DNA of 64,000 bases from NCBI RefSeq assembly GCF_058153355.1, contig NZ_CM177019.1; one strand, written 5' to 3'. Under the pieces are notes generated by a model. The model had not been told where the DNA came from. It did not search any database and worked only from the letters and a program-made list of their open reading frames with translations. The first letter of the stretch is position 1; every line of letters begins with the position of its first letter. Below are positions 9,105 to 52,218 of this stretch, in pieces. The position numbers and the translations under genes are program-made.

Positions 9105-9335
9105 TTGCCGGAGAGCGGCTCCGCCTTATCCGGCCGACATAGATTTATTCCTGTTCACGTACAGATTGTTGGATGCGGCGTAAACGCCTTATCCGACCTG
9201 GATTCTCGTAGGCCGGACAAGACGCGAAGCGTCGCCTCCGGCATGGTGCGCCGAATGTCGGATGCGGCGTAAACGCCTTATCCGACCTACATTTCCGTAG
9301 GCCGGACAAGACGCAAAGCGTCGCCTCCGGCATGG
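9105..9335. repeat. Cluster of REP (BIME-like) elements between gabP and gabT
   Basis: Repeated GCCGGATGCGGCGTAAACGCCTTATCCGACCTAC and GTAGGCCGGACAAGACGCnAAGCGTCGCCTCCGGCATG units in alternating orientation. Confidence 0.75.
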
Positions 9336-9343
9336 GTGCGGTG

Positions 9344-10624
9344 CTACTGCTTCGCCTCATCAAAACACTGGCTGATGATCTCCAGACCCTGACGGATCTG
9401 AGCATCTTCAATAGTGAGCGGGACAAGGATGCGCAGCACGTTGTAATACGGGCCGCAGGAGAGAAGAATCAGGCCTTTATCGCGGGCGCGCGCCACGATA
9501 TCGGCGGTGAGTTTGGCGTCAGGTTTACTGTGATCGCCACCTTCAAACAGCTCGATAGCAATCATCGCCCCCAGCCCGCGAACGTCGCCTACCTCAGTGT
9601 GTTTTTCGGCGATCGCCAGCAATCCGTCTTTCAGCTTTTGCCCCAGATCGTTGGCTTTTTGCAGCAGATTTTCCTGTTCAAACACCTTCAACACTTCCAG
9701 CGCCGCGACGCAGGCAATCGGGTTACCCGCATAAGTGCCGCCTAAGCCGCCCGGAGCGACAGCGTCCATCACTTCGGCGCGCCCGGTGACGCCCGCCAGC
9801 GGGAAGCCGCCTGCGATCGATTTCGCAAAGGTGGTGAGATCCGGCGCCACGCCCATCTGTTCCATCGCAAACAGCGTGCCGGTACGCCCCGCGCCGCTCT
9901 GCACTTCATCGGCAATCAACATGATCCCGTGCTCGTCACACAGCGCGCGTAAGCGCTGCATAAAGGCTGGCGTCGCGGCGTAGAAACCGCCTTCGCCCTG
10001 AACCGGCTCAATCACGATGGCTGCGATATCTTCCGGCGCGGCGTCATTTTTGAAGATCCGGTGGATGCTGGCGATAGCGTCATCTTCACTGATGCCGTGC
10101 AGCGGACACGGATAAAGCGCGCGATAAACATGCCCTGGCATCAGGCCCATACCCGCAGAGTACGGATTCACCTTGCCGGTCAGCGCCAGCGTGTAGTGCG
10201 TACGCCCGTGATATGCACCGCTAAAGGCGATGGTGCCGCTACGTTTGGTGGCGGCGCGGGCGATTTTCACCGCGTTTTCCACCGCTTCGGAACCAGTCGT
10301 CACCAGCAGCGTTTTTTTTGCGAAATCGCCCGGCACCTTCTGATTCATAATCTCGCACAGCTCCAGATACGGCTCGTAAGCCAACACCTGGAAGCAGGTG
10401 TGCGACAGTTTTTTCAACTGCGCTTCCACCGCCGCAACCACTTTCGGATGCAGGTGCCCGGTATTGAGCACCGCAATCCCGCCCGCGAAATCAAGATACT
10501 CACGGCCTTCAACGTCCCACACCCGGCAGTTTTCCGCGCGGTCAGCGAAAATGGGGTGAATTTGCCCAACGCCACGAGGAACTGCCTGACTACGGCGCTG
10601 CATTAACTCTTTATTGCTGCTCAT
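9344..10624 (-). CDS. gabT: 4-aminobutyrate aminotransferase GabT
   Basis: 426-aa ORF MSSNKELMQRRSQAVPRGVG..., PLP aminotransferase class III. Confidence 0.95.
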   Translation of the reverse strand: MSSNKELMQRRSQAVPRGVGQIHPIFADRAENCRVWDVEGREYLDFAGGIAVLNTGHLHPKVVAAVEAQLKKLSHTCFQVLAYEPYLELCEIMNQKVPGDFAKKTLLVTTGSEAVENAVKIARAATKRSGTIAFSGAYHGRTHYTLALTGKVNPYSAGMGLMPGHVYRALYPCPLHGISEDDAIASIHRIFKNDAAPEDIAAIVIEPVQGEGGFYAATPAFMQRLRALCDEHGIMLIADEVQSGAGRTGTLFAMEQMGVAPDLTTFAKSIAGGFPLAGVTGRAEVMDAVAPGGLGGTYAGNPIACVAALEVLKVFEQENLLQKANDLGQKLKDGLLAIAEKHTEVGDVRGLGAMIAIELFEGGDHSKPDAKLTADIVARARDKGLILLSCGPYYNVLRILVPLTIEDAQIRQGLEIISQCFDEAKQ

Positions 10625-33886: not shown

Positions 33887-34606
33887 CTACCATTTTAAAT
33901 AATTACAAGCAGCAGTGTCTGCTCTATATGAACAGTTTATTTTAGCTGCTTCGTAGCCGATTAAACCTATAATGGGGTTATTGTTCTCATTGTCGTTGTA
34001 AATATCTTTTAGGAGGTTATCTCCTTGTTGGCTGGCCCAGCTCTGAGAGTCATTATTAAAATCATAATAATATTTTGCTGAGAGCAGTTGGACGGGTTGC
34101 TCGGTATCTGGCAAAACGCTCCAGATAATAATTTGCTTAACTCTGATGATTTCATTTTCAGCCTGTTTTTTAGCTGCGCTTAAACCTTCTTTCAATTTTG
34201 AATTGTCTGGTTCTTTCTTAAAACAATAAGGATCACTTCCATTGGCGACACAGGCCTCATTGTATTGGTCTATAGAGCGCTTTGCGCTTTCTATCAAACT
34301 GGCGTAGCCATTAGCAAACCGAGTCATTTCCCTTTTCCAAATGCTATTTGTTGCAGATGCCGACATATCACACGTATAAGTAACAGTCTGGTGTCCTTGT
34401 TCATCGGTTCCATCTTCCCATTTAAACAATTCACATCGCTGGCGATGCTCTAATGCAGTCCCAAGGGTTCTGGTTGAGTCTATATTTGATAATACCTGTG
34501 ATTTTATAATTTCCTGATTGTCTGAAGCGGATACATTATCACAGCCAGTAAGAATAAATATTGAGCAACTGATAAACAATCCAATAAGTACTTTTCTTTT
34601 AGACAT
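33887..34606 (-). CDS. Putative lipoprotein
   Basis: 239-aa ORF with signal peptide and lipobox LTGC (MSKRKVLIGLFISCSIFILTGCDN...). Confidence 0.6.
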   Translation of the reverse strand: MSKRKVLIGLFISCSIFILTGCDNVSASDNQEIIKSQVLSNIDSTRTLGTALEHRQRCELFKWEDGTDEQGHQTVTYTCDMSASATNSIWKREMTRFANGYASLIESAKRSIDQYNEACVANGSDPYCFKKEPDNSKLKEGLSAAKKQAENEIIRVKQIIIWSVLPDTEQPVQLLSAKYYYDFNNDSQSWASQQGDNLLKDIYNDNENNNPIIGLIGYEAAKINCSYRADTAACNYLKW

Positions 34607-34682
34607 GAGTGATTCCTTTTTAAGTTTTGGTAAATTACGTGACCTTGACTAAATCAGGTCTGATAAGATGGTTAATCTGGTT

Positions 34683-35153
34683 TTAATGAATGAAGGGCAT
34701 ATGTTCGATGCCTGTATAAAGTAAATTGCTCCTGGCATTGATCGTATTGGTCAGACAGGCGTGACTTTCAATTTCTTTACCCATAGAGTTCATGACACTG
34801 ATATGAGCATCAGGCTGACCTTTGTACTCTTCATAAGTGATAGCCATAGCGCCTTCTATATTCTCTCCAGTTCCTCGCAATACAAAGACTCTATTGTCAG
34901 TAACATCATTTGCGGTGATGGACTGCTGCGCTTGACCTGAATGAGTATTCAGTTTGATGACTACGCTGCCTTTATCAGAACTTTTATCCTGTGATTTATA
35001 GGTAATATATACGATGTCTTTTTTATGACTCAGTGTCATAACCCCACCAGTATCAAGTGTGCATTTTAGATCCCAGTTTTCCTGACCAGCCAGTGAAGAA
35101 CTGCTTAACAACATTAGTATATAAAAAGATGCTTTTATTTTTACAATATTCAT
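34683..35153 (-). CDS. Putative secreted protein
   Basis: 156-aa ORF with signal peptide MNIVKIKASFYILMLLSSSSLAGQE. Confidence 0.55.
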   Translation of the reverse strand: MNIVKIKASFYILMLLSSSSLAGQENWDLKCTLDTGGVMTLSHKKDIVYITYKSQDKSSDKGSVVIKLNTHSGQAQQSITANDVTDNRVFVLRGTGENIEGAMAITYEEYKGQPDAHISVMNSMGKEIESHACLTNTINARSNLLYTGIEHMPFIH

Positions 35154-35189
35154 ATAGCCTGCTGATTAAGTGGGGCGACTATTCTTAAT

Positions 35190-35945
35190 TTATGAAGCTG
35201 CTCCTCTATTAATACTCTTTATCTGATGAGCAATATTTTTATATGAACGATGATTAGCCGAGTTCATTACATCATGGATATAAGGAAAATGAGGTAAGGA
35301 TGAGATGAACCGCTCACCCGCAGTGAGATGGCAGATGTCATCTCTGCGCACAAAACTCTCTGTGGTTAACTTCACCTGGATGATGCTGGCTACTGGAATA
35401 ACCCTGATTATTTCGGCCTGACAGGCAACTAAATACCATTTTCCTTCCGTGTGAATAAGACGATAAGGTTCAAAGACCGCGTGAGAATCATTGCCAGTCA
35501 GCAAATGAATACAGTTTTGTTGACAGATCGCCTGTATCAGCCGCTGAAAACATTCTGATGATACAACCGAGTCAGAATGCGATGAAGACCAGATAAGGCA
35601 GGGAGAATACGACGTTTCACCCGTGAGGTAATGCATCAACCTGCGATCAGGTGACGGAAATAATTGAGAGATTCCGGTGTTACGCATAAACGCCAGAACA
35701 TCTAATGAACTGTCTGTAAAGCGTTTCCCGTCAAGTCGCCAGCGCCCATTCTCACTAACGATATTAAGGTGGAGTAATCGCTGGTGGAAATCTCGCTGTA
35801 GCGTTCGTTCAGATACTCCAAACTCTTCTGCCAGGTTTTTTAGGTCAAGAGACTCTCCTGACAGTAACCGGCTAATAATCTGTGTCAGCCTGATGGCAAA
35901 CCGGTCATAACGAGTCGATGTAGTGTTCATCAGAAAAACGTCCAT
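35190..35945 (-). CDS. HTH plus WYL domain transcriptional regulator (YfjR-like)
   Basis: N-terminal HTH LSGESLDLKNLAEEFGVSERTLQRDFHQ; WYL signature EGKWYLVACQAE; track ORF begins at an upstream TTG, first ATG with plausible context used. Confidence 0.7.
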   Translation of the reverse strand: MDVFLMNTTSTRYDRFAIRLTQIISRLLSGESLDLKNLAEEFGVSERTLQRDFHQRLLHLNIVSENGRWRLDGKRFTDSSLDVLAFMRNTGISQLFPSPDRRLMHYLTGETSYSPCLIWSSSHSDSVVSSECFQRLIQAICQQNCIHLLTGNDSHAVFEPYRLIHTEGKWYLVACQAEIIRVIPVASIIQVKLTTESFVRRDDICHLTAGERFISSLPHFPYIHDVMNSANHRSYKNIAHQIKSINRGAAS

Positions 35946-36166
35946 GGATAACTTACTGTTTTTAATGATGTTATTATGAATCATGAGCACGACAGGATAT
36001 GTCGTAGTAACGGGAGGAATAGAGAAAAAACGTCCAGACAAATAACTAAGTAATATCCTGATTAACAATAACTATTTTTTCCAGAGACAGAACTGAAGCA
36101 GGTCGCGACATATCCTGTCGCTGAAACTCATAATTTTCAGGTGGCTTAACTCAGTGGGTAGATGTA

Positions 36167-37051
36167 TTAGAAAAACCAGTGCCATATTGCGGTAGCTGCA
36201 TTCTCCAGCCCTTCTCTGAGCACTCCCAACCCGTTGCGTATCATGTTGGGGAGAGGTATGGCCTCCAGAATCCTGCTCAATAATTCTCCCAACAAATCCG
36301 CGAAATCCTTTCGGGCCTTCGTCTCCGATTCTTTGGTGCGATGTTCTTTCCTGATCTGGCGAAAGACGCCACTGGTAGCCTCTGGTGGCAGGGCAAAAAT
36401 CATTGTTTCAACTATACGAGACATGTTGTAACCGGTTTTTGCTGAAACAGCATGCACCGGGTAAGGGGTAAAGAACTGGCGGGAAACGGCAGCACTTCTC
36501 GCTGTGAGCGTCATGAGTTGCTTCACTGAAGGAGATCCTTTTTCACGATCCCATTCCAGTGATGGCTCGGCTTTGTCAGCCTGGTTGATAACAAAAACAA
36601 TGCTGTCTGTCGATACGCCACAATCCAGTAGAAAACGGTGGAATTCTTCGTCTGTGGTACAGGCGCGGTCATCGGCTTTCATCACCCAGAGAATGAGATC
36701 CAGCTTCGGTAACTGTTCCTGATACATCTGGCGATATATCTCATCATGCTTCAGCGATTCACCTGCGCCCGGCAGATCGATCAGCGTCAGGCTGCGTCCT
36801 CCAGCGTTCAGGGTAAAATGCAAAGGTTTACGTGTGCAGCCTTCTGCATGGCTGACTGGGCTGAGAGGATGTTCAAAAAGAGCATTGCAAAGCGAGGATT
36901 TTCCGGCACCTGTTTTGCCCATGATGCCAATCACGGGTTCGTAATGAATACTCTGGCGTATATGCTCCAGAACCAAATCGGAGATATGTTCAGGAAGAAT
37001 GGATAAAGGTTGCTTCAGGACATTAATGCCCCGTTCAAAGGAATCAGACAT
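36167..37051 (-). CDS. P-loop GTPase (YfjP/YeeP/YkfA family)
   Basis: Walker A GIMGKTGAGKSS, DLPG and NQADK GTPase motifs; start at internal Met19. Confidence 0.8.
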   Translation of the reverse strand: MSDSFERGINVLKQPLSILPEHISDLVLEHIRQSIHYEPVIGIMGKTGAGKSSLCNALFEHPLSPVSHAEGCTRKPLHFTLNAGGRSLTLIDLPGAGESLKHDEIYRQMYQEQLPKLDLILWVMKADDRACTTDEEFHRFLLDCGVSTDSIVFVINQADKAEPSLEWDREKGSPSVKQLMTLTARSAAVSRQFFTPYPVHAVSAKTGYNMSRIVETMIFALPPEATSGVFRQIRKEHRTKESETKARKDFADLLGELLSRILEAIPLPNMIRNGLGVLREGLENAATAIWHWFF

Positions 37052-37215
37052 GTAGCCTCCGGAATGAAAAAATTCGATACAGCAACTTCGCTGCAATGTA
37101 TTCATTGCGGTAATACAGGTCTGTTTTTTTTTGCATTCGAATTACGGGGAGGAATGTGGTTTTGTGGAGCAAACCGGGGGCATTGCCCCGGTTCACTGAT
37201 ATGGTGAAATGATAT

Positions 37216-37455
37216 CTAACGTCGCATTACCCATTCATTCAGTTCTGACTCCAGCCAGCCAACGGATTGCCTTCCCAAGCGTTTTTGTTTTGGAAATGTT
37301 CCATCGTAGCGTGGCGATTTTGGATTAAGCCAGTCGTATATGGTTGAGCGTGAAATTCCCATTTTTTTCATTACATCTTTTAGCCTCAAGATCCTCGGTG
37401 AATCAGGAATATTTGCGTAACTGGATGTATGTAAGGAGGGAGGGTTCTGTAACAT
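37216..37455 (-). CDS. alpA: AlpA-family prophage regulatory protein
   Basis: 79-aa ORF with STIYDWLNPKSPRYDGTFPK HTH region. Confidence 0.75.
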   Translation of the reverse strand: MLQNPPSLHTSSYANIPDSPRILRLKDVMKKMGISRSTIYDWLNPKSPRYDGTFPKQKRLGRQSVGWLESELNEWVMRR

Positions 37456-37568
37456 CTAGGCTTCCTTAGTATGAGTTTGTTCGGGTGGGTCCATATTGCC
37501 AACCACGCTGGGGCTGTCATACACTGGAAGTAACATTAAAATAAAATCACTTTAGGGATTTACTTTTC

Positions 37569-38450
37569 ATGAAGGATGTGGGTGCGAATTTTTTTGATGA
37601 TTTCTATCTGCAAGTTTGTACCGCTTGTGAGGACAAACTTCTTGAGCTGGAATGGAAACTTGAAGTCGAAAAAAAGGAGAGCAACCAAGATGTTCTGCGC
37701 ACTTACAGGCAAAGAGCCTATGATAAAATTGAAGAATTTAAAATTATTGAGTATTCAAAAATACAATGTCAATATTTTGTAGATATGACTAATAGCGACA
37801 ATATACGCTACTCACAAGAGTTTATAAATGTTGATGGAATAATGGTTGAGAAACCTTTTATTTATAAGGAAACATATGCAGAATATCGGATTGAAATTCG
37901 AGGAAAAATGGACGGGTATAAACTGACAGGATTAGCAAGACTATATGATGCACATTATGAATATATATATCTATCTATGGCTTTAGAAGATTTTTACTGG
38001 GCGCAGTTCCAATATTCATTGGGCAATAAAAAAGAAAGTTGTAAGTTTCTTCTTGATGCTTATTCTTATATGAATGTCTGTATTTCGCGAGATGATAACC
38101 GAGACTCACCGAGTTTTCATCGATTAAGAAGTGGTTTTGATAAAGTATGCAGAAGAGCGCGCTCAAGCGCTGGAGGGAAAAATAAACTTGCAGAACTTGA
38201 ATATATTAAAGATACAGTTGTTATCTTACTTGAAGATATTCCTTCACATAGCGACTGGAAAAATAAACGTCAACTTCTTGAATATTTAATGCCCTATATT
38301 TGTAATAATGATAAAAAGGTCAATCCAGATAAATGGATAAATGATACAGGCGATAGAGAGGAAACTATCCGCCGCAGACTTAATAAATGGTTTACAGGTG
38401 ATCTAAAAGTAGAGATTGATAAAGTCCTAAAGAACAATACTAACAATTAA
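37569..38450 (+). CDS. Hypothetical protein (AT-rich island cargo)
   Basis: 293-aa ORF, no recognisable motif, soluble. Confidence 0.5.
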   Translation: MKDVGANFFDDFYLQVCTACEDKLLELEWKLEVEKKESNQDVLRTYRQRAYDKIEEFKIIEYSKIQCQYFVDMTNSDNIRYSQEFINVDGIMVEKPFIYKETYAEYRIEIRGKMDGYKLTGLARLYDAHYEYIYLSMALEDFYWAQFQYSLGNKKESCKFLLDAYSYMNVCISRDDNRDSPSFHRLRSGFDKVCRRARSSAGGKNKLAELEYIKDTVVILLEDIPSHSDWKNKRQLLEYLMPYICNNDKKVNPDKWINDTGDREETIRRRLNKWFTGDLKVEIDKVLKNNTNN

Positions 38451-38717
38451 TATTATTATGGTTTTGATATTTTTATGTCTATCAGGAGGGCTACTATACG
38501 ATCAGTCTTGATGGGTTTGAAATTACATCGCTATGAAAATACCCCACATAAATCTATTGGAAAACCAATCATTGTTAATATGACTATTGTTATGATGACT
38601 GTTGTAATTGTGTCTACACGAGAAATTGAATGAAATTTATAGGTTTGAAGTAGCCTTAGTGGTAGTCGAAAATAATTATGTAAATGGGCCTGCATTTTGC
38701 AAGAAGGCCCATTTACG

Positions 38718-39047
38718 TCAGGGGTAAATTATATATCCCATAATCGCACAGATTAACCGGTAATCACTCACGTAGAAGATTTCCGGATTCTCAGTGCTTT
38801 GTTCACCGATAAAGAAGACTTGAGCTCTCTCTTTAGCTTTTTTATTTACTGCTTCTTTTGCTTCTTCCTGCACAGTTTCAAGCTCATTCAAAAGCATAGT
38901 CTTTTTGGCTTTTGACCAGTCTCCCCACTCAATGTGTAGTTTATAGCTACGCGAGGGCTTAAACTTACCAGATTCGTCTTTTGCCCATTCTCCCGAGAGC
39001 GGAATGACAATTCGGTTTTCGTCTTGCTCAAATTTCTGCCATAACAA
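38718..39047 (-). CDS. Hypothetical small protein (doubtful)
   Basis: 109-aa ORF beginning with TTG and no RBS; only internal ATG at Met51. Confidence 0.25.
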   Translation of the reverse strand: MLWQKFEQDENRIVIPLSGEWAKDESGKFKPSRSYKLHIEWGDWSKAKKTMLLNELETVQEEAKEAVNKKAKERAQVFFIGEQSTENPEIFYVSDYRLICAIMGYIIYP

Positions 39048-39094
39048 CTGCGAATAAAAAACTCGGCGCTCAGGGTAGGGTTGAACCGGGTCTT

Positions 39095-39628
39095 TTAGTT
39101 TTTTAACACGGTCATGTAAGTATCGGCATTAATACCTGGGATAATTAATGACATACCACGGTCATACGGGAAGCGAATAAATGCCCTACAAATCTGGCGA
39201 ATAGCATTAACCGGGCGGCGGGATTGCCGCGCTGGAGCATTTCCCTCGCTGGATGCCGATGTTGTAGAACGTATTGGATTGGGTTTGTTGTTGTTACCAG
39301 TAGTGTCAGGATCAACAACGGGTCGATTTTCAATCAGTTTTAATCCTGCAGGCATCAAACCTGGTGCGCTATCTAACATGCGGCGGACGCTTTTCTTCTG
39401 CCCCTGTTTAACCACTGTGCTTTCTGCATCAGCATCGCAATTAATGTGCTCTTTTCCAGGCATTTTATTAAACGAAGGTCTTTTCTTACTTCCTTTTTGC
39501 CAAGCAGAAGGATACATCTCAATCCCACATCCCCAGCATACGTAACTGTTCGTATCTACAACATCAAGTAACCAAAGATCTTCTGCCTCAATAATCTCAC
39601 TGGTATATTTATCACGTGCAGATTCCAT
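39095..39628 (-). CDS. Hypothetical protein downstream of the STAND NTPase gene
   Basis: 177-aa ORF with strong RBS AAAGGAGA 4 nt before ATG; 45 bp after the upstream stop; Cys/His cluster CWGCG...HINC. Confidence 0.5.
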   Translation of the reverse strand: MESARDKYTSEIIEAEDLWLLDVVDTNSYVCWGCGIEMYPSAWQKGSKKRPSFNKMPGKEHINCDADAESTVVKQGQKKSVRRMLDSAPGLMPAGLKLIENRPVVDPDTTGNNNKPNPIRSTTSASSEGNAPARQSRRPVNAIRQICRAFIRFPYDRGMSLIIPGINADTYMTVLKN

Positions 39629-39673
39629 GATTTCTCCTTTAAACAGAATTCCTGTGAAGGCGGCTACTAGCCT

Positions 39674-42600
39674 TCATTCAAACCGTTGTTCCAATGCCTC
39701 ATCTTCCAATCGCTCGCGTTCTTTTTCCTTTTCAACCCAGTTAGTCAGTTTTTTATAAACAGCTCTAGCCGACTTAGAAATGTCTGCACGCTCGTGGGTG
39801 ACCAACCGGCCTATCGCTTCAACCCTGGGTTGCATCACGTTCGCACGACTACCGGACCATGATGAAGGTGCTACGTGTTCGGCAAAGATCTCAAGGACGG
39901 CTCGTGGCTCGGGTGAGGCTTCTAGAAATCTCAGAGCATCATCCTGCAAGCAAATAGGACTTTGCTCCCCGTCTTTTGACCATAGATTAATACCTGAAGC
40001 GACTGAAGCCCAAACCTGAGGGTCTTTAGTGGTCCCGCACCATTCAATCAAAATATCTACATCGATTTTCGCAATAGGAGACTGATGTGAATCATCATGA
40101 TTGATGAAATGCAGCCGCCTCTGTTGTTGATCCTCCGTACCATCAAAAATGCGACTGAGAAATTCTTTTGGCATCCATGCAGCGGTGATACCGATAGCGT
40201 CTTCGAAAGAAAAAATGTAGCCAAAATGCTCATCAACAACAGCAAAGATTGTATTCAGCCATTCTAGCTTTTCAGCCTCGTTGCCATCGAAGCGCAATGT
40301 GGCATCGATAACACGTTCCATTGCATAATCCAGATATCCGCCGAGATCGTTGTGATCTCTTTGGAACCTCTGGATTGCAGCGGATAGTCCAATTGTTCGT
40401 AGCGCAAGACCTAGTGTATCCGTAGCATCTCCTTTATCAGGTAGTTTCATACTCAATGCTTCCAATACTACTTCATCACCATTCGGTTTACTCAGCAGCC
40501 TTTGAGCAAGCTCGAGAACCCTGCTTTCTGGCAAATTAGAGAATTGCTCACCCCACAGAATTGCCCCATACATATGGGGCCGTATGTCAGAGTCATCCAG
40601 AAGCGACATGCAACGATCCAGATCGATTTCAGTAAACTCCTGCCAAGGATGTAGGTTGACTAATTCGAATCGAAGTTCGGAATGTTGTGCGCACTGATCG
40701 AGCAGTTCCTGCGCTAATGCTTTATCGATAGAATTCGTCTCTTCTATGAAACCTCGAATAACAGAAAAATCACTTTGAGATTTATGCTGTAGATTCATTT
40801 GAGTGATAAGTTTCTGCCAATAAACTCGTAGGTCAGGTGCTCCTTTAGCTAAGCCTTTACCGAATTCGACGCGATAGGGCATCCCATCTCGTAAGAATAA
40901 ATTAGGGCCTAACTCATCAAGTTCATGCGTGGATACTGCAAAGTCTTGCCCTAACTGGAACGCTTTTGCGTTAAGTATTTCCTTTATTTTTATGAATTTG
41001 TTAGGCCCCTCACGCTCAAAATCGGCATTCAGCGCCCAAAAATCACGCCCCTTACTGAGTACATAAGCCATAACTGCCGGAACCAAGTCATTAGGCTCCA
41101 ATTCTCGTTCCAATGTCACAAGTCCTTCCGGCAAAGGAGCTAAATCTTCGTTGTCATTTCTTTTGGTATGGGAAAAGTAAATTGTTGAGCGGACCGCTTT
41201 CCAGCCTTCACCCCAAGGACGATGGGCATGTAATTTGCGAGCCGCATCAATTAATTTTGACCTCATTCCTTCCTGACGCCAAATCCAGCGAAATTTATTA
41301 GCTAAGATCAGCCGAGCATCATCTTCAAGTTCGGGAACTCTTGAAGTTGCTAATCTCACCACAATGTCGATGAAGGTGATTAGCCACTCAACAAGCTCAT
41401 CGTAGCTGGGTCGAAATCCATAATCTCTTGGCCGAGCACCAAACTCATTAATCCCGAATCCTGTCCACGGTGGTCCGCCGAGAGCAGTTTCAAGCATTTC
41501 GAGCCCCAGCCTTCTACGTCCGGCCATACTTGAACCAATGCATTCATCCATGACCGCAACACGTTGTTCTAAAGAGGCATGGGTACCGGATAGATAAGGT
41601 TGGAAAAACCTCTTTATCTTATTTCGAGCCGAATCATAATTATTGCTCGCGCTTTCCTGATCTGCGATACGGATTAAGAGCTTAATGCATCGTTCAAAGT
41701 ATTTCGATTCATATGCAAGTAACTGCAACAATTTGATAATTGCTGTTCGTTGTGGGTTGTAGCGTGATTTAAAATGCTCAAAATTAGACGTAACAAGTGT
41801 TTCTTCAATCCGCTCAAGCAAAGCTCCCGGGGCGACTGGAGCGACATAATTCAGAATGCGTGTCGAAACATCATCTAGGTCTATTATTTTTCCAAGCAGC
41901 CCTTCGGGCTGTAACCAAGCTTCAACAATCTCTTTAGCCACAGCATGGCTGTGCAATAGTCCCAACCTGTGCGCGAACGACATCAATAATCGTTGTCGAT
42001 CCGGAGCTTCAAAGGTCGTCCTAAGTTGATCAATCGGAATACTATTAAGTGCAGATGCTGCCAACTTGTTAGCAATGGCATGGGGAAGGATGGCTCTCCA
42101 GTGGGATCTTTTCTGAACAACGTGACGTTCCATCAACTTCGTAACAGTTTTGAATAACTGGATTTTGGGATACCCAGAGAGCGCACCCAATATTTCCAGT
42201 TCATCGGTAGCTGCATCTGAACTAGATATTGAGAACGAATACACCAGTGACAATATTTCAGCTTGCTCCCGTAAATGGCCGTCGGGATGATTACGTTGTT
42301 CAAACAAGCGATTAAACAACTGCGCATCTGAAAGTAGGGCTAAACTCTCACCTTCCTCCACTCTTTCCGCTATAGCCAAAGCCACTCTTGCATTCCCATC
42401 TGCGAACTTTGCAATCCGACGGGCATTATTCTGACCAATAGAAGGGAAGCGACGGATAAGAAGTTGCTCTGCCACCTCTGGACCATCTGTCTCAATGTGG
42501 ATGACCTCAGTTGTCTGTGGTTTGTCATCCCTAATGTCGTACTCGATCGTGATGAGACTTACTTCTTTCCCTGCGGCTGATACTTTGCTGGCAAGCGAAG

Positions 42601-43525
42601 CATGGAGTTCTGATGGGCAATTATCAAGGATCATAATTGCTCGTCGGCCTTCAGCGAGCAGGTTATCAAGCATTGCTGTAGCCGACGGTACTGGCTCATA
42701 GCCAGTATCAACATAAATAGCTACTGTCCGGTCAAGCGCATCTGTTCCAACAGTATCATCAAAGAGCGCCTGAACGATTCGAGTCTTCCCAACACCAGAC
42801 AATCCTGTAATACGAACAGCCTTATTCGTCGAACGGATCAGTGCTCGCATTGGGTTAATTGCTTCATCAATTTTGAGTTTTTGCCCCTTTCCCGATGGTA
42901 AAGTAATGGTTACGCTTGGGGCTGAGATTAAAGTGTCTGTAACACCTTGTGGTGGATTGCTCCAGGCTCCGTAGGGTTGCCAACCGGAATACCCTTGCCC
43001 AAGCTTTGCTTTTACCCACAGCATGACTGATGGATGTTGGCGCAACCATTGGATGAGTTTGGAGCGGTCGTAGAAATCAAGATGAAGATAACTTTCGTTA
43101 GGATCATCTTTTACTGCATCTCTCATCGCTTTGAGACGATTCTTCTTTCCTGACGGCGAGCAATCATCACCCAGGCTGACAATGATGTAACTGCCTTGCT
43201 TTCTGGCTTGTTCAGAAATGATGGGAGAAAGTGCTTTTCCGGTGCCAATTTCCCTCTCGATTGCAGCCTTAGGCATCTTATGTTTCTTTGCCTGAAAGAC
43301 CGTATCAGGTCTTACAAGAAAGCCTGCTTTCAGTTGATCAACTGGAACCTGAACATGGATGTCAATTCCTCCGTCAGGGGCTGTAATTGAACCAGACCAA
43401 TTTACACATGCTGGGCTATGGCCGTGCATTGCCACTTCAGCTTCTGCTAGCCGAGCGATCAGCTCTTCCAACTGGATATCGGAGAGCCGAAGTAATTCGT
43501 CCTTTTCAATGTCAAAGATTGCCAC
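39674..43525 (-). CDS. STAND-type P-loop NTPase with N-terminal Mrr-like PD-(D/E)xK nuclease motif (Avs-like candidate)
   Basis: 1283-aa ORF (GTG start); DGGIDIH...VFQAKKH Mrr_cat-like motif near residues 50-80; Walker A GLSGVGKT near residue 245; Walker B-like AIMILDNC; about 900 aa of helical C-terminus. Confidence 0.6.
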   Translation of the reverse strand: MAIFDIEKDELLRLSDIQLEELIARLAEAEVAMHGHSPACVNWSGSITAPDGGIDIHVQVPVDQLKAGFLVRPDTVFQAKKHKMPKAAIEREIGTGKALSPIISEQARKQGSYIIVSLGDDCSPSGKKNRLKAMRDAVKDDPNESYLHLDFYDRSKLIQWLRQHPSVMLWVKAKLGQGYSGWQPYGAWSNPPQGVTDTLISAPSVTITLPSGKGQKLKIDEAINPMRALIRSTNKAVRITGLSGVGKTRIVQALFDDTVGTDALDRTVAIYVDTGYEPVPSATAMLDNLLAEGRRAIMILDNCPSELHASLASKVSAAGKEVSLITIEYDIRDDKPQTTEVIHIETDGPEVAEQLLIRRFPSIGQNNARRIAKFADGNARVALAIAERVEEGESLALLSDAQLFNRLFEQRNHPDGHLREQAEILSLVYSFSISSSDAATDELEILGALSGYPKIQLFKTVTKLMERHVVQKRSHWRAILPHAIANKLAASALNSIPIDQLRTTFEAPDRQRLLMSFAHRLGLLHSHAVAKEIVEAWLQPEGLLGKIIDLDDVSTRILNYVAPVAPGALLERIEETLVTSNFEHFKSRYNPQRTAIIKLLQLLAYESKYFERCIKLLIRIADQESASNNYDSARNKIKRFFQPYLSGTHASLEQRVAVMDECIGSSMAGRRRLGLEMLETALGGPPWTGFGINEFGARPRDYGFRPSYDELVEWLITFIDIVVRLATSRVPELEDDARLILANKFRWIWRQEGMRSKLIDAARKLHAHRPWGEGWKAVRSTIYFSHTKRNDNEDLAPLPEGLVTLERELEPNDLVPAVMAYVLSKGRDFWALNADFEREGPNKFIKIKEILNAKAFQLGQDFAVSTHELDELGPNLFLRDGMPYRVEFGKGLAKGAPDLRVYWQKLITQMNLQHKSQSDFSVIRGFIEETNSIDKALAQELLDQCAQHSELRFELVNLHPWQEFTEIDLDRCMSLLDDSDIRPHMYGAILWGEQFSNLPESRVLELAQRLLSKPNGDEVVLEALSMKLPDKGDATDTLGLALRTIGLSAAIQRFQRDHNDLGGYLDYAMERVIDATLRFDGNEAEKLEWLNTIFAVVDEHFGYIFSFEDAIGITAAWMPKEFLSRIFDGTEDQQQRRLHFINHDDSHQSPIAKIDVDILIEWCGTTKDPQVWASVASGINLWSKDGEQSPICLQDDALRFLEASPEPRAVLEIFAEHVAPSSWSGSRANVMQPRVEAIGRLVTHERADISKSARAVYKKLTNWVEKEKERERLEDEALEQRFE

Positions 43526-43991
43526 ATCCTAACCCTATTAAAGATACTGCGACTATATAAAAAGTTACCCTTATTCTAACCAATGACAGAAGGAATGTCC
43601 CTTAAACCGTTGCAATTAAAACCATTCTCATCAAGTAGTTAAGATTTTCTTACTCAGCACTATGATGTTGATCTTACCCACTTTGCGTCAAACTATTAGT
43701 ATGTATAAAGCACATTGCTGGCCTGATTAAGAAATGGATTGATATGTGAGTTAATGTCATTTATGAGCTTAAAGCTATTTTTAATCCCCTTTGCTTTACA
43801 ACTCTTTATATTATTTCATTCTTATTTACACCAATATTTATTGGTATGATGGTTTAATTTAATTCATTTTTGTTTTTTTGTTTGAAGCACATTGAAAGGA
43901 TATTATTATTTTCTCCTTCATGTTGAAAACAATTTAATTGGGCGGGTTTGGTTCGATATTATTAATATCTTTTTCAAAGAAATTATTTATA

Positions 43992-44000
43992 TGGTATAAT
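43992..44000 (+). promoter_or_regulatory. Candidate extended -10 promoter for the nuclease-helicase operon
   Basis: TGgTATAAT 33 bp upstream of ATG 44033 in an AT-rich divergent intergenic region; RBS AAGAGGG at 44022-44028. Confidence 0.4.
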
Positions 44001-44032
44001 GCAATAAAATCGTATTGAGGTAAGAGGGTACT

Positions 44033-46248
44033 ATGAGTGGATCTTTTGATTTCTTAGCTGGTTCTTTGGCTCTTGAAAATAAACCTTTCCATATGCAGGT
44101 TGCAGAGCTAATAAAAAATAAGTTTCGTCATTGTGAGGGATATATTGGCTATAAGCTTGCAACTTTGGGACGGGCATCGGACTCCGATGTTCCAGATTTT
44201 ATCATTATACAAAAGAACATGGCATAATTTTAGTTGACATGGTTGAAAGTAAGGTTTCTCGTGCGGATGAGGTGCAGGGGAATGAGGTTTGGTATTATGA
44301 GCATGGAGGTTCGAGTGTAGCAAGGAATTTTATTGTCGAGTTGTATGAGGAGGAGGTAAGAAGTAGATTAAAAAACGATGCAAATTTCTACAACAGAAGA
44401 AAAAAAACATGCACAGTTCCGATTACTAGCGCTGTTATTTTTTGTAAAAATAATAATAGTGAGATAGACAATTTCTATCAAGAGTATGCTGATTATGAAA
44501 GTTCAGCTATTGAATATGGCGAGATTGAGAATTGGTTAGATAGCGTTGAAGAAGGGTTCAATTGCGATTCTAAAGTTCTGGGGCGAATTTTTTCATTGTT
44601 AGAGGGGACGTTTATATATGAAAATAAAAAAATTCTCGATGAAGAACCACCCCTTAACACTGTGAATGATTATATCAAAAAATCTCTAAATATAACATTT
44701 AATCAAGATCACTCACAACGTATTGCTTCAATGCAACTAACCCCGGGCCCTCAGAGAATTCGTGGCTTGGCCGGAACAGGTAAGACGATAGTTCTTTCAT
44801 TAAAAGCTGCGATAACGCACAAAAAATTTCCAGATTATAAAATATTATATTTATTTAATACACAAAGCTTATATCAAAATGTGCAGAGTTCAATCGCCAG
44901 ATACTATACTTTAGAAGCCAAAAAAGCGCCAGATTTTGAATCGAATCTAAATGTCTTCCATGCGTGGGGTGGTAGGCAGAAACCGGGACTGTATTCATAT
45001 ATTTGCCAACAGTATGGATTAACTCCACTAACATTAGGAGATGTACGTGGAGCAAGTGATGCCTTAGCTGTCATATATGCAGAACTTCTCAAAAAAATCG
45101 GTGGTGATATAAAGCCTGAATATGATCTTATTTTAATAGATGAAGCCCAAGATTTTCCTAAAGAGTTGTTTGAAGTGGTCTTTAAACTAGCAAAGGGCAA
45201 ACCTCATGAGAAAAGGATCGTTTGGGCGTATGATGAATTCCAGTCATTGAAAGACACTCAAATTAAAGGTCCATCTGAGCTATTTGGTTTGGCCAAAGAT
45301 GGCACCCCAAATATGAGTGATGATGTTTTAGATGGATTCTATCCTGGTGACATAAAAAAAGATATTGTTTTATCCAATTGCTATAGGACTCCTCGTCCTG
45401 CTCTTATGACTGCTCACGGAGTAGCATTAGGACTTTATACTAATAAGCCGAATGAAATGTTTTATAACCATGATGAATGGAAAGCTATTGGCTATAAAGT
45501 TTTAAATCCTCAGACAAAAATCATTGCAAAAGGCAATGATGTGCAAATAGAGAGACCTAATGAAAATAGTCTAAATCTGTTGGAAGGAATTATGACAGAG
45601 CAGGGTAAGAGGGCCCTTAACCTTATCCAGACTAAGGTGGAAAATGATCGGGAAAGTCAATATGAATATATTGCAAGTAACATCAAACGTTTAATTGATG
45701 AGGAAAATGTCTCGCCTGAAGAAATAGTCATAATTAATTTGAAGTCCTCTAGTAACAAAGATGAGATGCTACGCATTCAATTCATCTTAAATAATTACGG
45801 TATTCACTCTGTAATTCCCGGTTACGTTGAAAGCTCAGATGTCTTTAAACCCAAGGGGTTCGTTACAATCACAACCCCTTTCAGGGCTAAAGGGAATGAA
45901 GCTAATATTGTATTTATTTTAAATAGCCAGTTAGTTGTTAATGATTTTTCATTAAGGATGCGTAATGCATTTTTTGTAGCAGTAACTCGAACAAGAGGAT
46001 GGTGTTATATTGTTGGTTATGGAGAAAAAATGCAAATGCTTGTGGACGAAATTTCAGGAATCAAAAGAGATTTCCCTATATTTAATTTCATTTGTCCTGA
46101 CCCTGATGATGTCAAAGCACGAAAAAGTTATCTCCACAAATCAGACTCTGAGATCAATGAGATGCAAAGAGTACTGGATTTAGTTAATAATAACGAAGAG
46201 TTAAGACGACTGCTACAGGAGCAGCTCATTGATAAGAAAGGAGATTAA
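44033..46248 (+). CDS. PD-(D/E)xK/NERD-like nuclease fused to SF1 (UvrD-like) helicase, apparently frameshifted (Nhi-like candidate)
   Basis: Track ORFs 44033-44227 (64 aa) and 44239-46248 (669 aa) join by a 1-nt shift in an A4 run at 44211-44214; helicase motifs GLAGTGKT, LILIDEAQDF, NCYRTPRP, TPFRAKGNEANIVFIL, VAVTRTRGW; N-terminal D...ExK (PDFIII...VDMVESK). Confidence 0.65.
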
Positions 46249-46250
46249 AA

Positions 46251-46922
46251 TTGAATTTCTCATTAGTGCAGCAAAGCTTAAACCATGTCGAAGCACTTTT
46301 AAAACCTGTAACTCAACAAAAATTAATAGAGTTTAAAGAAAGAGAGAAGGTCATAAGTTGGACAAATAGGAAGCCAGGAATTTACAATGAAGTCTACTAT
46401 CCTATTGAATATCAATGTGTAATTGATGCAAGGCAGTACTCATTATTGCTTCGAGATGGCGATTTTTTTCAATTTTTTTATGAGTTTGATGCGAAAACTG
46501 GCAATCTGAAGAAAGCTAAGTTGGCTTTCTATCCCTCACCAATTGATTGTAGAAATTCGTTGGATGATCTCAATGAAGCAGCTGAATTTGCTTTTGATCA
46601 TAATGAAGAACTCTATAATCATCTTGATAATTGGATTTCGCTATTGGAAATAAAAAACTATTTTCCAGCAAATACATCTCAAGTTAGATTTGATTATGAT
46701 AGTACGGTTACTACACATGAGAAAGCACATCTGCAGTTTAGTAGTGTAAATAAACTTAGACTTCCGGCTGACTTTTTTCCTTTGCCATATGCATTTGTAT
46801 TAATGGTTTCTGATCTTATTAATGGATGCTCAAAGGTAGATGCTAGACATATAAGCTTTACTAAGAGAAACAGCCTAAGATCAAATGTTTCTAATAGAAT
46901 CATAACCTTGAAATCACAGTGA
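46251..46922 (+). CDS. Hypothetical protein, translationally coupled partner of the nuclease-helicase
   Basis: 223-aa ORF with TTG start 3 nt after the upstream stop; RBS AAAGGAG at 46238-46244. Confidence 0.5.
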   Translation: MNFSLVQQSLNHVEALLKPVTQQKLIEFKEREKVISWTNRKPGIYNEVYYPIEYQCVIDARQYSLLLRDGDFFQFFYEFDAKTGNLKKAKLAFYPSPIDCRNSLDDLNEAAEFAFDHNEELYNHLDNWISLLEIKNYFPANTSQVRFDYDSTVTTHEKAHLQFSSVNKLRLPADFFPLPYAFVLMVSDLINGCSKVDARHISFTKRNSLRSNVSNRIITLKSQ

Positions 46923-46925
46923 ATT

Positions 46926-46961
46926 AACAAGCCTCTTTTATAAGGATATAAGAGGCTTGTT
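46926..46961 (+). terminator. Rho-independent terminator-like hairpin after the two-gene module
   Basis: AACAAGCCTCTT / AAGAGGCTTGTT 12-bp stem followed by ATTATTT. Confidence 0.5.
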
Positions 46962-47372
46962 ATTATTTCGCTAAATCTGATCACTGTCGAGAATTGATTG
47001 ATTTTTTGTGATTATTTATTCCATTCTGAGTTCATTGCCGATTTTATATGTATGTATTTTGTATCGGCTTATCTTGGCTTATTAAGTCTAGCATCACACA
47101 ATGCTTTTCAGGAAATCATCTTACCTATTAACCATATTATTACCGGCCCAACATTTCTCGCATTTACAGCTGGTAGCTCCTGTGTGTAAACGCTATTAAT
47201 CTCATACTCATTGGTTTAATATTAACTTTGAACTTCTGGAGTGCAGATCACCAATCCTAATATTACTACTAAATAGCTGCGCCTAATAACGCGACACCCG
47301 CCGTTTACTGTCTGGTGGCTTAACCTGCAAGGGCTGGCTGAAAGTGGGACACTATTCCGCGCAGCTATTTAG

Positions 47373-48614
47373 TCACCCAACTAGCTTCATTCCTTTTATC
47401 CCACCTTCAATCATGCTTCCACGATCCGCTGCCATCACAAAATTTGCCCACCATTGCATCATCGGGCGACGCTGTTCCAGGTAATCGCTGCGGTTATAAG
47501 CACGACGAACCTCATTCTTATCCACATGGGCCAATGCTGCCTCAATGACATCAGGCGGAAAGCCTTGTTCATTAAGAGCCGTACTGGCAATTGATCTCAG
47601 ACCATGCGAAACAAGCACACCACCAAAACCTGCGCGTTTTAGTGAGGCGTTAACAGTCTGACTGTTCATTGGCTGGTTGGGCTTGATACGGCTGGGAAAG
47701 ATAAATTCTCGGTTGCCGCTTAGCGGTTTCATCATCTCCAGCACAGCTATTGCTTCATCTGACAATGGAACAGTATGATCGCGGTTCATTTTCATGCGTG
47801 CTGCAGGAATCTTCCACTCTCGCGCTTCTATGTCTACCTCTTCCCAGCGAGCTTCAGCCGCTTCGGCAGGGCGGGTAATAGTAAGAAGTTGCCACATGAA
47901 CAGGCAGCGTGTGGAAAGGCTAATGCTGGCTGTTCGCATTGTCTGCATCAATTGAGGTAGCTGATCCGGTCGAATGCTGGGCATGTTCTTTTTCTGAGGC
48001 TTCTCGAAGGCTTTACCGATATTAACGCTGGGAACAGCATCAATCAGCCCTGTGTTTTGGGCATAGATCATGACCTCATTAATGCGCTGACACAGGCGAC
48101 GAACGGTTTCCAGTGCTCCTCTGGCCTGAACTGGTTGGACGGCCTGAACCAGTGTGTGTGCTTTAATATCTGTAACGCTAATGTCGCCAATTGCAGGAAA
48201 GACATCTCTCTCAAGAGAGCGCCAGATATCCTCTGCGTAGTCTTCGGTCACACTGGCTTTCTTCACATTCCACCAACGTTCAGCCACGAGCTGGAAAGTA
48301 TTGGTTTTAGCTTCCAGCGAACTGCGAAGTTGTTCTTGTTGATGTTCCTGGGGATCAATTTGTTTCGCCAGAAGAGAGCGGGACTCTGCCCGATAGTTTC
48401 GGGCATCGGCAAGGGTAACTGACGGGTAGGGGCCTATGCTCTTCTTCGCACGTTTCTTAGTGACAGGGCGAATGTAGCGAAACTGCCAGATTTTACTTCC
48501 GCTGGATTTGATGAGTAGCTCAAGGCCATCACCATCATAGAGAACGTAGTCCGCTTCTTTGGGTTTGGCGGATTCGATTTCTTTAACGGATAGAGGTTTG
48601 GTTTGTCTTGCCAT
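47373..48614 (-). CDS. intA: P4-type tyrosine integrase (IntA/SlpA family)
   Basis: 413-aa ORF MARQTKPLSVKEIESAKPKEADYVLYDGDGLELLIKSSGSKIWQFRY...; C-terminal catalytic region; adjacent to ssrA. Confidence 0.9.
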   Translation of the reverse strand: MARQTKPLSVKEIESAKPKEADYVLYDGDGLELLIKSSGSKIWQFRYIRPVTKKRAKKSIGPYPSVTLADARNYRAESRSLLAKQIDPQEHQQEQLRSSLEAKTNTFQLVAERWWNVKKASVTEDYAEDIWRSLERDVFPAIGDISVTDIKAHTLVQAVQPVQARGALETVRRLCQRINEVMIYAQNTGLIDAVPSVNIGKAFEKPQKKNMPSIRPDQLPQLMQTMRTASISLSTRCLFMWQLLTITRPAEAAEARWEEVDIEAREWKIPAARMKMNRDHTVPLSDEAIAVLEMMKPLSGNREFIFPSRIKPNQPMNSQTVNASLKRAGFGGVLVSHGLRSIASTALNEQGFPPDVIEAALAHVDKNEVRRAYNRSDYLEQRRPMMQWWANFVMAADRGSMIEGGIKGMKLVG

Positions 48615-48818
48615 TGCCGGGTTTCCATAGTTTTAGGCACCTCAAAAACAATAAAGCTTTATGAGGTGCCTAACAAGGTGCCTAAAAGGTTCGGATTTAA
48701 TTAGTTCTCTTCGGACTTCGCGGGACAAATTGAGGGCACAAAAAAGCCCGCAGGGCTTGCGCCGTGCGGACTCTTAGGACTTCATCGGATGACTCTGGTA
48801 ATCACCGATGGAGAATTT

Positions 48819-49181
48819 TGGTGGAGCTGGCGGGAGTTGAACCCGCGTCCGAAATTCCTACATCCTCGGTACTACATGCTTAGTCAGTCTTTACATTCGC
48901 TTGCCAGCTGCGGACGGACACGCCACTAACAAACTAGCCTGATTAAGTTTTAACGCTTCAACCCCAGGCAGGGCTTCCACGCGATCTCTTTTGGGTTTGA
49001 CCTCTCTTGATCCCCGTCCTAAGAGCGGAGGCTAGGGAGAGAGGGCTCTAAGCAGGTTATTAAGCTGCTAAAGCGTAGTTTTCGTCGTTTGCGACTATTT
49101 TTTGCGGCTTTTTACGAGGCCAACCGCCCCTCGGCATGCACCTTGGGTTTCGCAAATCCCGTCGAATCCAGAATCAGCCCC
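48819..49181 (-). ncRNA. ssrA: tmRNA (SsrA)
   Basis: Reverse complement reads GGGGCTGATTCTGGATTCGACGGGATTTGCG...GTTCAACTCCCGCCAGCTCCACCA (363 nt), with the tag-peptide reading frame region. Confidence 0.95.
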
Positions 49182-50792: not shown

Positions 50793-52218
50793 TAATGCCG
50801 ATCAGTTAAGGATCAGTTGACCGATCCAGTGGCTGTGTAAGAATCCGGAAACGCTCACTTGTTTCCGGATTTTTTTATGCACATTGGACAGGCTCTTGAT
50901 CTGGTATCCCGTTACGATTCTCTGCGTAACCCACTGACTTCTCTGGGGGATTACCTCGACCCCGAACTCATCTCTCGTTGCCTTGCCGAATCAGGTACTG
51001 TAACGCTACGCAAGCGCCGTCTTCCCCTCGAAATGATGGTCTGGTGTATTGTTGGCATGGCGCTTGAGCGTAAAGAACCTCTTCACCAGATTGTGAATCG
51101 CCTGGACATCATGCTGCCGGGCAATCGCCCCTTCGTTGCCCCCAGTGCCGTTATTCAGGCCCGCCAGCGCCTGGGAAGTGAGGCTGTCCGCCGCGTGTTC
51201 ACGAAAACAGCGCAGCTCTGGCATAACGCCACGCCGCATCCGCACTGGTGCGGCCTGACCCTGCTGGCCATCGATGGTGTGTTCTGGCGCACACCGGATA
51301 CACCAGAGAACGATGCAGCCTTCCCCCGCCAGACACATGCCGGGAACCCGGCGCTCTACCCGCAGGTCAAAATGGTCTGCCAGATGGAACTGACCAGCCA
51401 TCTGCTGACGGCTGCAGCCTTCGGCACGATGAAGAACAGCGAAAATGAGCTTGCTGAGCAACTTATAGAACAAACCGGCGATAACACTCTGACGTTAATG
51501 GATAAAGGTTATTACTCACTGGGACTGTTAAATGCCTGGAGCCTGGCGGGAGAACACCGCCACTGGATGATACCTCTCAGAAAGGGAGCGCAATATGAAG
51601 AGATCAGAAAACTGGGTAAAGGCGATCATCTGGTGAAGCTGAAAACCAGCCCGCAGGCACGAAAAAAGTGGCCGGGACTGGGAAATGAAGTGACAGCCCG
51701 CCTGCTGACCGTGACGCGCAAAGGAAAAGTCTGCCATCTGCTGACGTCGATGACGGACGCCATGCGCTTCCCCGGAGGAGAAATGGCGGATCTGTACAGT
51801 CATCGCTGGGAAATCGAACTGGGATACAGGGAGATAAAACAGACGATGCAACTGAGCAGGCTGACGCTGAGAAGTAAAAAGCCGGAGCTTGTGGAGCAAG
51901 AGCTGTGGGGTGTCTTACTGGCTTATAATCTGGTGAGATATCAGATGATTAAAATGGCGGAACATCTGAAAGGTTACTGGCCGAATCAACTGAGTTTCTC
52001 AGAATCATGCGGAATGGTGATGAGAATGCTGATGACATTGCAGGGCGCTTCACCGGGACGTATACCGGAGCTGATGCGCGATCTTGCAAGTATGGGACAA
52101 CTTGTGAAATTACCGACAGGAAGGGAAAGGGCCTTCCCGAGAGTGGTAAAGGAGAGGCCCTGGAAATACCCCACAGCCCCGAAAAAGAGCCAGTCAGTTG
52201 CTTAACTGACTGGCATTA
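50793..52218 (+). mobile_element. IS4 (1426 bp) with 11-bp TSD GCTCATTGAGC
   Basis: Ends TAATGCCGATCAGTTAAGG... and ...CTTAACTGACTGGCATTA; TSD at 50782-50792 and 52219-52229; length matches IS4. Confidence 0.9.
50877..52205 (+). CDS. IS4 transposase
   Basis: 442-aa [34 protein letters not shown]... (start at Met7 of the track ORF). Confidence 0.9.

Follow-up and report, generated by a model that had tools for sequence, protein, structure and literature searches.

The locus described here lies on the minus strand of a 64,000-nucleotide stretch of contig NZ_CM177019.1 (NCBI RefSeq assembly GCF_058153355.1), referred to in its full length as the window, and comprises two neighbouring genes of Avs8, the new name given to the anti-phage system PD-lambda-4 (bioRxiv 10.1101/2025.07.02.662641). 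According to the listing of open reading frames (ORFs) and their translations, the first gene encodes a protein of 1283 residues, Avs8A, from a GTG start (39674..43525, -); the second, gene B, begins with a 177-residue ORF with an ATG start (39095..39628, -), and 45 nucleotides separate the two ORFs. The PADLOC model PD-Lambda-4_A (PDLC03991) matches Avs8A over its full length (1-1283 of 1283, 2499.9 bits), and 1207 of its 1283 residues (94%) are identical, without gaps, to those of ECOR07 Avs8A, deposited as WP_000963924.1 (bioRxiv 10.1101/2025.07.02.662641). The start VAIFDIEKDE is also found in six other loci, showing that the GTG start is conserved. An original prediction, made by eye from the window sequence, had recognised an Avs-like STAND layout and proposed a hidden Markov model search to settle the Avs clade; that search, through the PADLOC match, and the identity to ECOR07 make the assignment specific to Avs8. 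The locus is found in 158 of 5426 complete Escherichia coli genomes, on the chromosome in every case and at 95-99% identity, and the core genes bordering the surrounding island are 99.1% identical to those of E. coli. The locus is very probably an E. coli copy of the Avs8 anti-phage system, a capsid-sensing nuclease STAND receptor for which B is not needed. Since both the system and its mechanism have been published in two preprints, one on ECOR07 Avs8A (bioRxiv 10.1101/2025.07.02.662641) and one listing capsid-sensing STAND families (bioRxiv 10.64898/2026.01.04.697583), they are already known and the window adds one more allele; the name PD-lambda-4 is absent from the searchable main text of Vassallo et al. 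2022 (PMC9519451).

The reading frame of Avs8A is uninterrupted over 3852 nucleotides and can be divided into an effector, a switch and a sensor. The N-terminal PD-(D/E)xK nuclease effector domain of the Mrr type (about residues 1-175; 43001..43525, -) contains PDGGID at residues 50-55 and FQAKK at residues 77-81. It is followed by a P-loop nucleotide-binding domain (about residues 205-347; 42485..42913, -) with the Walker A motif GLSGVGKT at residues 241-248 and a Walker B motif, ILD, ending at D301, and by helical and winged-helix domains (about residues 348-500; 42026..42484, -) that complete the STAND module. The remainder forms the C-terminal sensor region (about residues 501-1283; 39677..42025, -), to which the literature ascribes capsid binding and which includes a mosaic segment at about residues 601-1000. 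When 36 homologues with identities as low as 40% are aligned, D51, D55, Q78, K80, the entire G241-K247 stretch (GLSGVGK) and D301, together with N302 and C303, are invariant, and the window protein retains every one of them. The DGGID...QAKK motif near the N-terminus and the Walker A/B core some 200 residues in, both of which had been noticed in the 1283-residue protein beforehand, are thus conserved features of the family.

An AlphaFold2 model of residues 1-600 (mean pLDDT 84.6), a check that had also been suggested for the N-terminal part, showed in structure searches a restriction-endonuclease fold with a STAND NTPase module behind it. In its secondary structure, helices span residues 349-466, and a beta hairpin (471-479) is followed by a further helix (482-495); a winged-helix element comes after the helical lid. 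The top 11 Foldseek matches in the PDB are all STAND proteins (6mfv, Apaf-1, NOD2, EfAvs5, NLRC4, SAMD9 and WRR4A; E 1.6e-6 to 1e-4), and the three-part module of nucleotide-binding, helical and winged-helix domains is closer to Apaf-1, NLR and Avs proteins than to AAA+ rings. By eye, GDGGIDGV...VYVQAKRW of E. coli Mrr can be placed against PDGGIDIH...TVFQAKKH of Avs8A. As far as fold and motif go, the nuclease-NTPase architecture is confirmed. The Mrr-type N-terminus that had been predicted is supported by the endonuclease fold and the invariant DGGID...QAK, though not by a match to the Mrr_cat profile; an NTPase outside STAND combined with the lack of a nuclease fold, which would have spoken against the prediction, is not what the structure searches returned. 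Avs8A of the window is a member of the family with an intact frame, conserved catalytic and nucleotide-binding residues, and nuclease and STAND folds.

Variation between alleles is concentrated in the sensor. Avs8A of the window and of ECOR07 differ at 76 residues, 55 of which fall inside residues 601-1000, where synonymous changes are likewise raised; the same segment shows only nine differences from the allele of Superficieibacter electus. Because synonymous changes are raised in the segment and the segment matches another allele, the cluster is better explained by recombination, and positive selection on the sensor, considered as an alternative cause, was rejected for these reasons. The comparison of alleles points to residues 601-1000 being a recombination tract within the sensor portion (residues 601-1283; 39677-41725, -), which looks to have been imported from a Superficieibacter-like allele. 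Between genera, residues 1-500 are about 93-95% identical and identity falls to about 60% in the sensor, as would be expected if the effector and switch are conserved while the sensor to which they are joined diversifies. The recombinant segment offers natural material for mapping the residues that set capsid specificity.

The spacer behind Avs8A (39629..39673, -) contains, as read from the sequence, an AAGGAG ribosome-binding site for gene B located six nucleotides ahead of its ATG, and no terminator-like site was found in it on the minus strand. The Cys/His cluster of the small ORF consists of C31, C34, H61 and C64; among 31 homologues the last three are invariant and C31 is nearly so. The PADLOC model PD-Lambda-4_B (PDLC03992, 303 positions) aligns with the 177-residue ORF at positions 1-176 and with a 109-residue ORF (38718..39047, -) at positions 195-303. 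Together with an alignment to E. coli FEX669, in which B is an intact coding sequence of 303 residues, this identifies an Avs8B pseudogene (38718..39628, -) of 303 residues if intact, split into 177 and 109 residues. The frameshift, at about 39105 (39100..39108, -; alignment column 575), is a one-nucleotide deletion in the T run of GTGTTTAAAAAAC, which reads GTG-TTAAAAAAC in the window. The feature extends to 38718 and not to 39095, because the remainder of B is the ORF at 38718..39047. The strong ribosome-binding site, the Cys/His cluster and the position 45 bp downstream, all noted in the original prediction, are present, but the 177-residue ORF is the front of B rather than a complete gene. 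The proposal that it is a co-transcribed accessory gene is not supported in that form, as the ORF is a frameshift remnant, B is reported to be dispensable and the B family adjoins many unrelated defence systems, with Avs8A beside it at only a small minority of loci. Programmed -1 frameshifting was also considered: through the deletion, a slippery heptamer, A_AAA_AAC, arises in frame just ahead of a UAA, and slippage by -1 at this heptamer would put the window's B back in frame, but the 84 nucleotides downstream fold no better than shuffled controls (z -0.38), and the candidate was rejected.

The commoner E. coli allele of B is broken elsewhere, by one additional A in an A run, which yields pieces of 248 and 51 residues. 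When complete E. coli genomes were probed with 81-nucleotide segments of intact B (n=147), 145 of the 147 were not identical to intact B at the A-run site and two were identical, and each non-identical full-length match listed spans 82 nucleotides for the 81-nucleotide probe. A B frameshift other than that of the window thus appears to be present in about 145 of the 147 complete E. coli genomes that carry the locus; the window's own deletion is shared by none of the 147 (at least 99% identity). More than 100 clusters, spanning Enterobacterales to Pseudomonas, contain B homologues of 300-305 residues, which makes the 303-residue form the ancestral one. WP_000443183.1, the accession under which ECOR07 Avs8B is cited (bioRxiv 10.1101/2025.07.02.662641), is a coding sequence of 248 residues with the A-run insertion relative to the 303-residue form, and the published dispensability result therefore came from a truncated B, which lacks the family-invariant residues E256, F272, F273, G275, Q277, F285, D289, R291 and C294.

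In intact B, a disordered linker connects a conserved N-terminal CxxC...HxxC domain with an OB-fold at the C-terminus. A profile search retrieved 477 clusters at 50% identity, mostly of about 300 residues; neither intact B nor 15 long homologues contain a Pfam domain at E 0.001 or better, and a PDB sequence search with B gave nothing meaningful. The family is under purifying selection across contexts (ratio of non-synonymous to synonymous substitution rates, dN/dS, 0.05-0.14). In a neighbour scan of 43 B loci, with one genome per species, Avs8A was upstream of B in only five (L010, L016, L020, L021 and L024). In the other scanned loci, B adjoins Qat, Lamassu-like LmuA/LmuB, Avs1b, type I restriction-modification, type II CBASS or an HNH protein. 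Separately from the scan, copies of B with 65% identity in Salmonella and E. coli were seen to be immediately preceded by QatABCD, and a Pseudomonas copy has no adjacent defence gene. A constant partner gene was sought, and no neighbour family occurred in more than six of 34 loci. Because B adjoins Qat, Lamassu, CBASS, Avs1b or restriction-modification elsewhere, it is not specific to Avs8. Beside Avs8A, B follows intact in L010 and L024, but the window, the common E. coli allele, L016, L020 and L021 all have a broken copy; such frequent breakage fits an Avs8A that works alone and argues for B as an independent gene resident in defence islands.

Some of the B loci retain traces of Avs8A. In Salmonella (L004-L006, 2386-2614), a fragment covering residues 87-163 lies upstream of QatA, and in Erwinia (L015, about 9940-10000) some 60 nucleotides resembling the 3' end of the Avs8A gene stand behind Avs1b and in front of B. 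These sequence remnants indicate that cassette (cargo) replacement has taken place in front of B. In other genera, a retron-type reverse transcriptase (PADLOC RT_VI, 240 bits) is encoded directly upstream of Avs8A, as in L016 (4969-6063), L024 (4992-6080), L020 and L021, and it is absent from the window.

Avs8 is located in a CP4-57-like integrative island inserted at ssrA, since a P4-type tyrosine integrase gene (47373-48614, minus strand; PRK09692, 934.6 bits) adjoins the tmRNA gene (48819-49181), whose encoded tag is ANDENYALAA. Over 32509-48850, the window is 96.5% identical to E. coli FEX669. The same island carries YfjI-like, GTPase and WYL-regulator genes (32480-37105) and an IS66-family transposase gene (30070-31641, -; 479 bits). 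Directly beyond B lies a gene for a hypothetical protein of 293 residues (37569-38450, +), which is conserved in the E. coli island copies and has no match in PADLOC, NCBIfam or PHROGs. On the other side of Avs8A, a DEAD/DEAH helicase and DUF2290 gene pair is divergently encoded (44035-46922, +; PADLOC 'Helicase', 361.7 bits, and 'DUF2290'), with the helicase gene split at about 44209 by a one-nucleotide deletion relative to FEX669 (ATTATAACAAAAG to ATTAT-ACAAAAG). The AT-rich intergenic region between Avs8A and the helicase gene (43526..44034, no strand assigned; G+C content 0.36-0.38) is likely the promoter region; promoter-like minus-strand hexamers occur in it at 43601-43573 and 43691-43662, in numbers not above those of shuffled controls. 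Elsewhere in the window, an IS4-like element (about 50859-52205, +) lies in a core region near recN/nadK/grpE and is found with full coverage in only two of 5426 E. coli genomes, a stretch of low G+C content (0.32-0.43) at 14000-20000, within which a tRNA-Met gene is located (17522-17597), may be another horizontally acquired segment, and a match to naRNA4 (CssrE) occurs at 9211-9287.

Functional knowledge of the system derives from ECOR07. Its purified Avs8A binds lambda gpE (Kd 127 nM) and the capsid protein of Bas21 (Kd 14 nM); capsid binding leads to Mg- and ATP-dependent degradation of double-stranded DNA, the protein appeared to require ATP hydrolysis, defence is lost in nuclease active-site mutants, Avs8A alone provides full defence against lambda, and Avs8B is dispensable (bioRxiv 10.1101/2025.07.02.662641). 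A genetic screen independently placed Avs8 among the capsid-sensing STAND families, with the HK97-fold major capsid protein as its trigger and a sensor described as TPR-like (bioRxiv 10.64898/2026.01.04.697583). Based on these reports and the architecture described above, we propose that Avs8A would act as a single-chain pattern-recognition receptor in which (i) monomers of the HK97-fold major capsid protein produced during infection are captured by the helical sensor at the C-terminus, as in the literature on ECOR07; (ii) this sets off ATP-dependent activation by the central STAND NTPase, probably through oligomerisation; and (iii) the N-terminal Mrr-type PD-(D/E)xK nuclease degrades double-stranded DNA and aborts the infection. 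The downstream B would be a separate Zn-ribbon-like and OB-fold protein, frameshifted in the window and not needed by Avs8A. Phage defence, binding of capsid protein and a DNase activity that depends on Mg and ATP are attributed to the window protein by analogy with its 94%-identical counterpart, from which we infer that the window allele is active and which capsids it might recognise.

Several observations weigh against this interpretation. Pfam searches with residues 1-1200 of Avs8A returned only AAA_16 (E 0.014-0.025) and no Mrr_cat, the STAND profile matches were weak (AAA_16, E 0.014; nSTAND3, E 0.52; NPHP3_N, E 1.4), and none of the 36 homologues reached a Pfam match at E 0.001. NCBIfam and PHROGs gave no match for Avs8A or for B, PDB sequence and profile searches with Avs8A returned nothing significant, and hhalign found no match between the Avs8A family profile and E. 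coli Mrr. Moreover, the 76 residues that differ from the assayed protein lie mostly in the sensor, which makes the trigger range of the window allele uncertain as judged from sequence comparison. With respect to sequence quality, the comparison with FEX669 shows seven unpaired single-base indels, every one a deletion of the window within a short homopolymer (33324, 35236, 37067, 38516, 39105, 44209 and 47247), which suggests either decay of the island or systematic under-calling of homopolymers in the assembly; because all seven are of this type, the frameshifts in B and in the helicase gene could be assembly errors, and the sequence quality is uncertain. The large protein could instead be a nuclease joined to a classical AAA+ domain (ORC/Cdc6 or clamp-loader-like), in which case it would be a modification-dependent restriction enzyme and not a STAND receptor. 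To this we attach hardly any probability, as the first AAA+ protein in the Foldseek ranking comes below the eleven STAND proteins, the STAND alignments cover 215-230 residues compared with about 150-170 for most AAA+ matches, the model has its winged-helix element after the helical lid, and what activates the 94%-identical counterpart is a phage protein and not DNA modification.

Decay of the entire locus to a non-functional remnant in a degraded island is also very unlikely. The single-nucleotide deletions in B and in the neighbouring helicase gene, as well as the IS66 and IS4 elements within the window, would fit such decay, but the frame of Avs8A is open throughout with every invariant residue in place, and several of the homopolymer deletions could stem from the assembly. 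A better case, albeit for a reading that we regard as improbable, can be made for Avs8 being a true two-gene system in which intact, 303-residue B modulates or extends Avs8A, for instance by affecting trigger range, control of toxicity or sensing of single-stranded DNA; in that case the window locus, like the majority of E. coli copies, would be disabled in part, and the reported dispensability would reflect a B that was already truncated. The 248-residue B of ECOR07 with its inserted A accords with this, since the invariant residues past position 248 make up the last OB-fold strands, as do the position of B in the same orientation 45 nucleotides behind Avs8A, with no intervening terminator, and the intact B genes that follow Avs8A in L010 and L024. 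However, the low frequency of Avs8A beside B in the neighbour scan, with other defence systems or no partner at most loci and no recurrent neighbour family, speaks against a dedicated pair, and so does the independent disruption of B at several positions next to Avs8A. Purified ECOR07 Avs8A, furthermore, bound capsid protein and cut DNA on its own, in line with the full lambda defence that it gave alone. We therefore favour the single-protein receptor.

Rather than being a part of Avs8, B may tentatively be assigned to a widespread, conserved Zn-ribbon-like and OB-fold family that travels with restriction-modification systems, type II CBASS, Avs8, Avs1b, Qat and Lamassu, although we consider this less likely than not to prove correct. 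If it does, intact B could have a role of its own, for example as a regulator sensing single-stranded DNA or as a helper shared across systems; its distribution would be comparable to that of the BrxR/CapW regulators, and its role would have been missed so far since the assayed allele was already truncated. The designation Avs8B appears to be a mis-assignment.

Among characterised systems, the window locus is most like ECOR07 Avs8, with which it shares gene order, the 1283-residue length and GTG start of Avs8A, the nuclease and NTPase motifs and the 45-nucleotide spacing to B; the two differ in how B is broken, by the A-run insertion in ECOR07 (248 residues) and by the T-run deletion in the window (177 residues). 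Avs1-Avs5 (AVAST) have no detectable sequence similarity to Avs8A of the window and are triggered by terminase or portal, whereas the trigger of Avs8 is the major capsid protein (bioRxiv 10.64898/2026.01.04.697583); the apparent need of the ECOR07 protein for ATP hydrolysis is a further difference from them. Avs7 and Avs10 belong to the same trigger class as Avs8 and reportedly bind the same interface of the capsid A-domain, while their sensor architectures, as described in that paper, differ from that of Avs8 (bioRxiv 10.64898/2026.01.04.697583). E. coli Mrr (EcoKMrr, a type IV enzyme) has no NTPase or sensor, recognises modified DNA and does not match Avs8A at the profile level, but possesses, like Avs8A, the motif DGGID ... 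[VF]QAK[RK] followed by a hydrophobic strand. The closest known proteins to gene B are OB-fold nucleic-acid-binding proteins, namely RPA, Teb1, MCM10, the OB domain of PolC and SSB.

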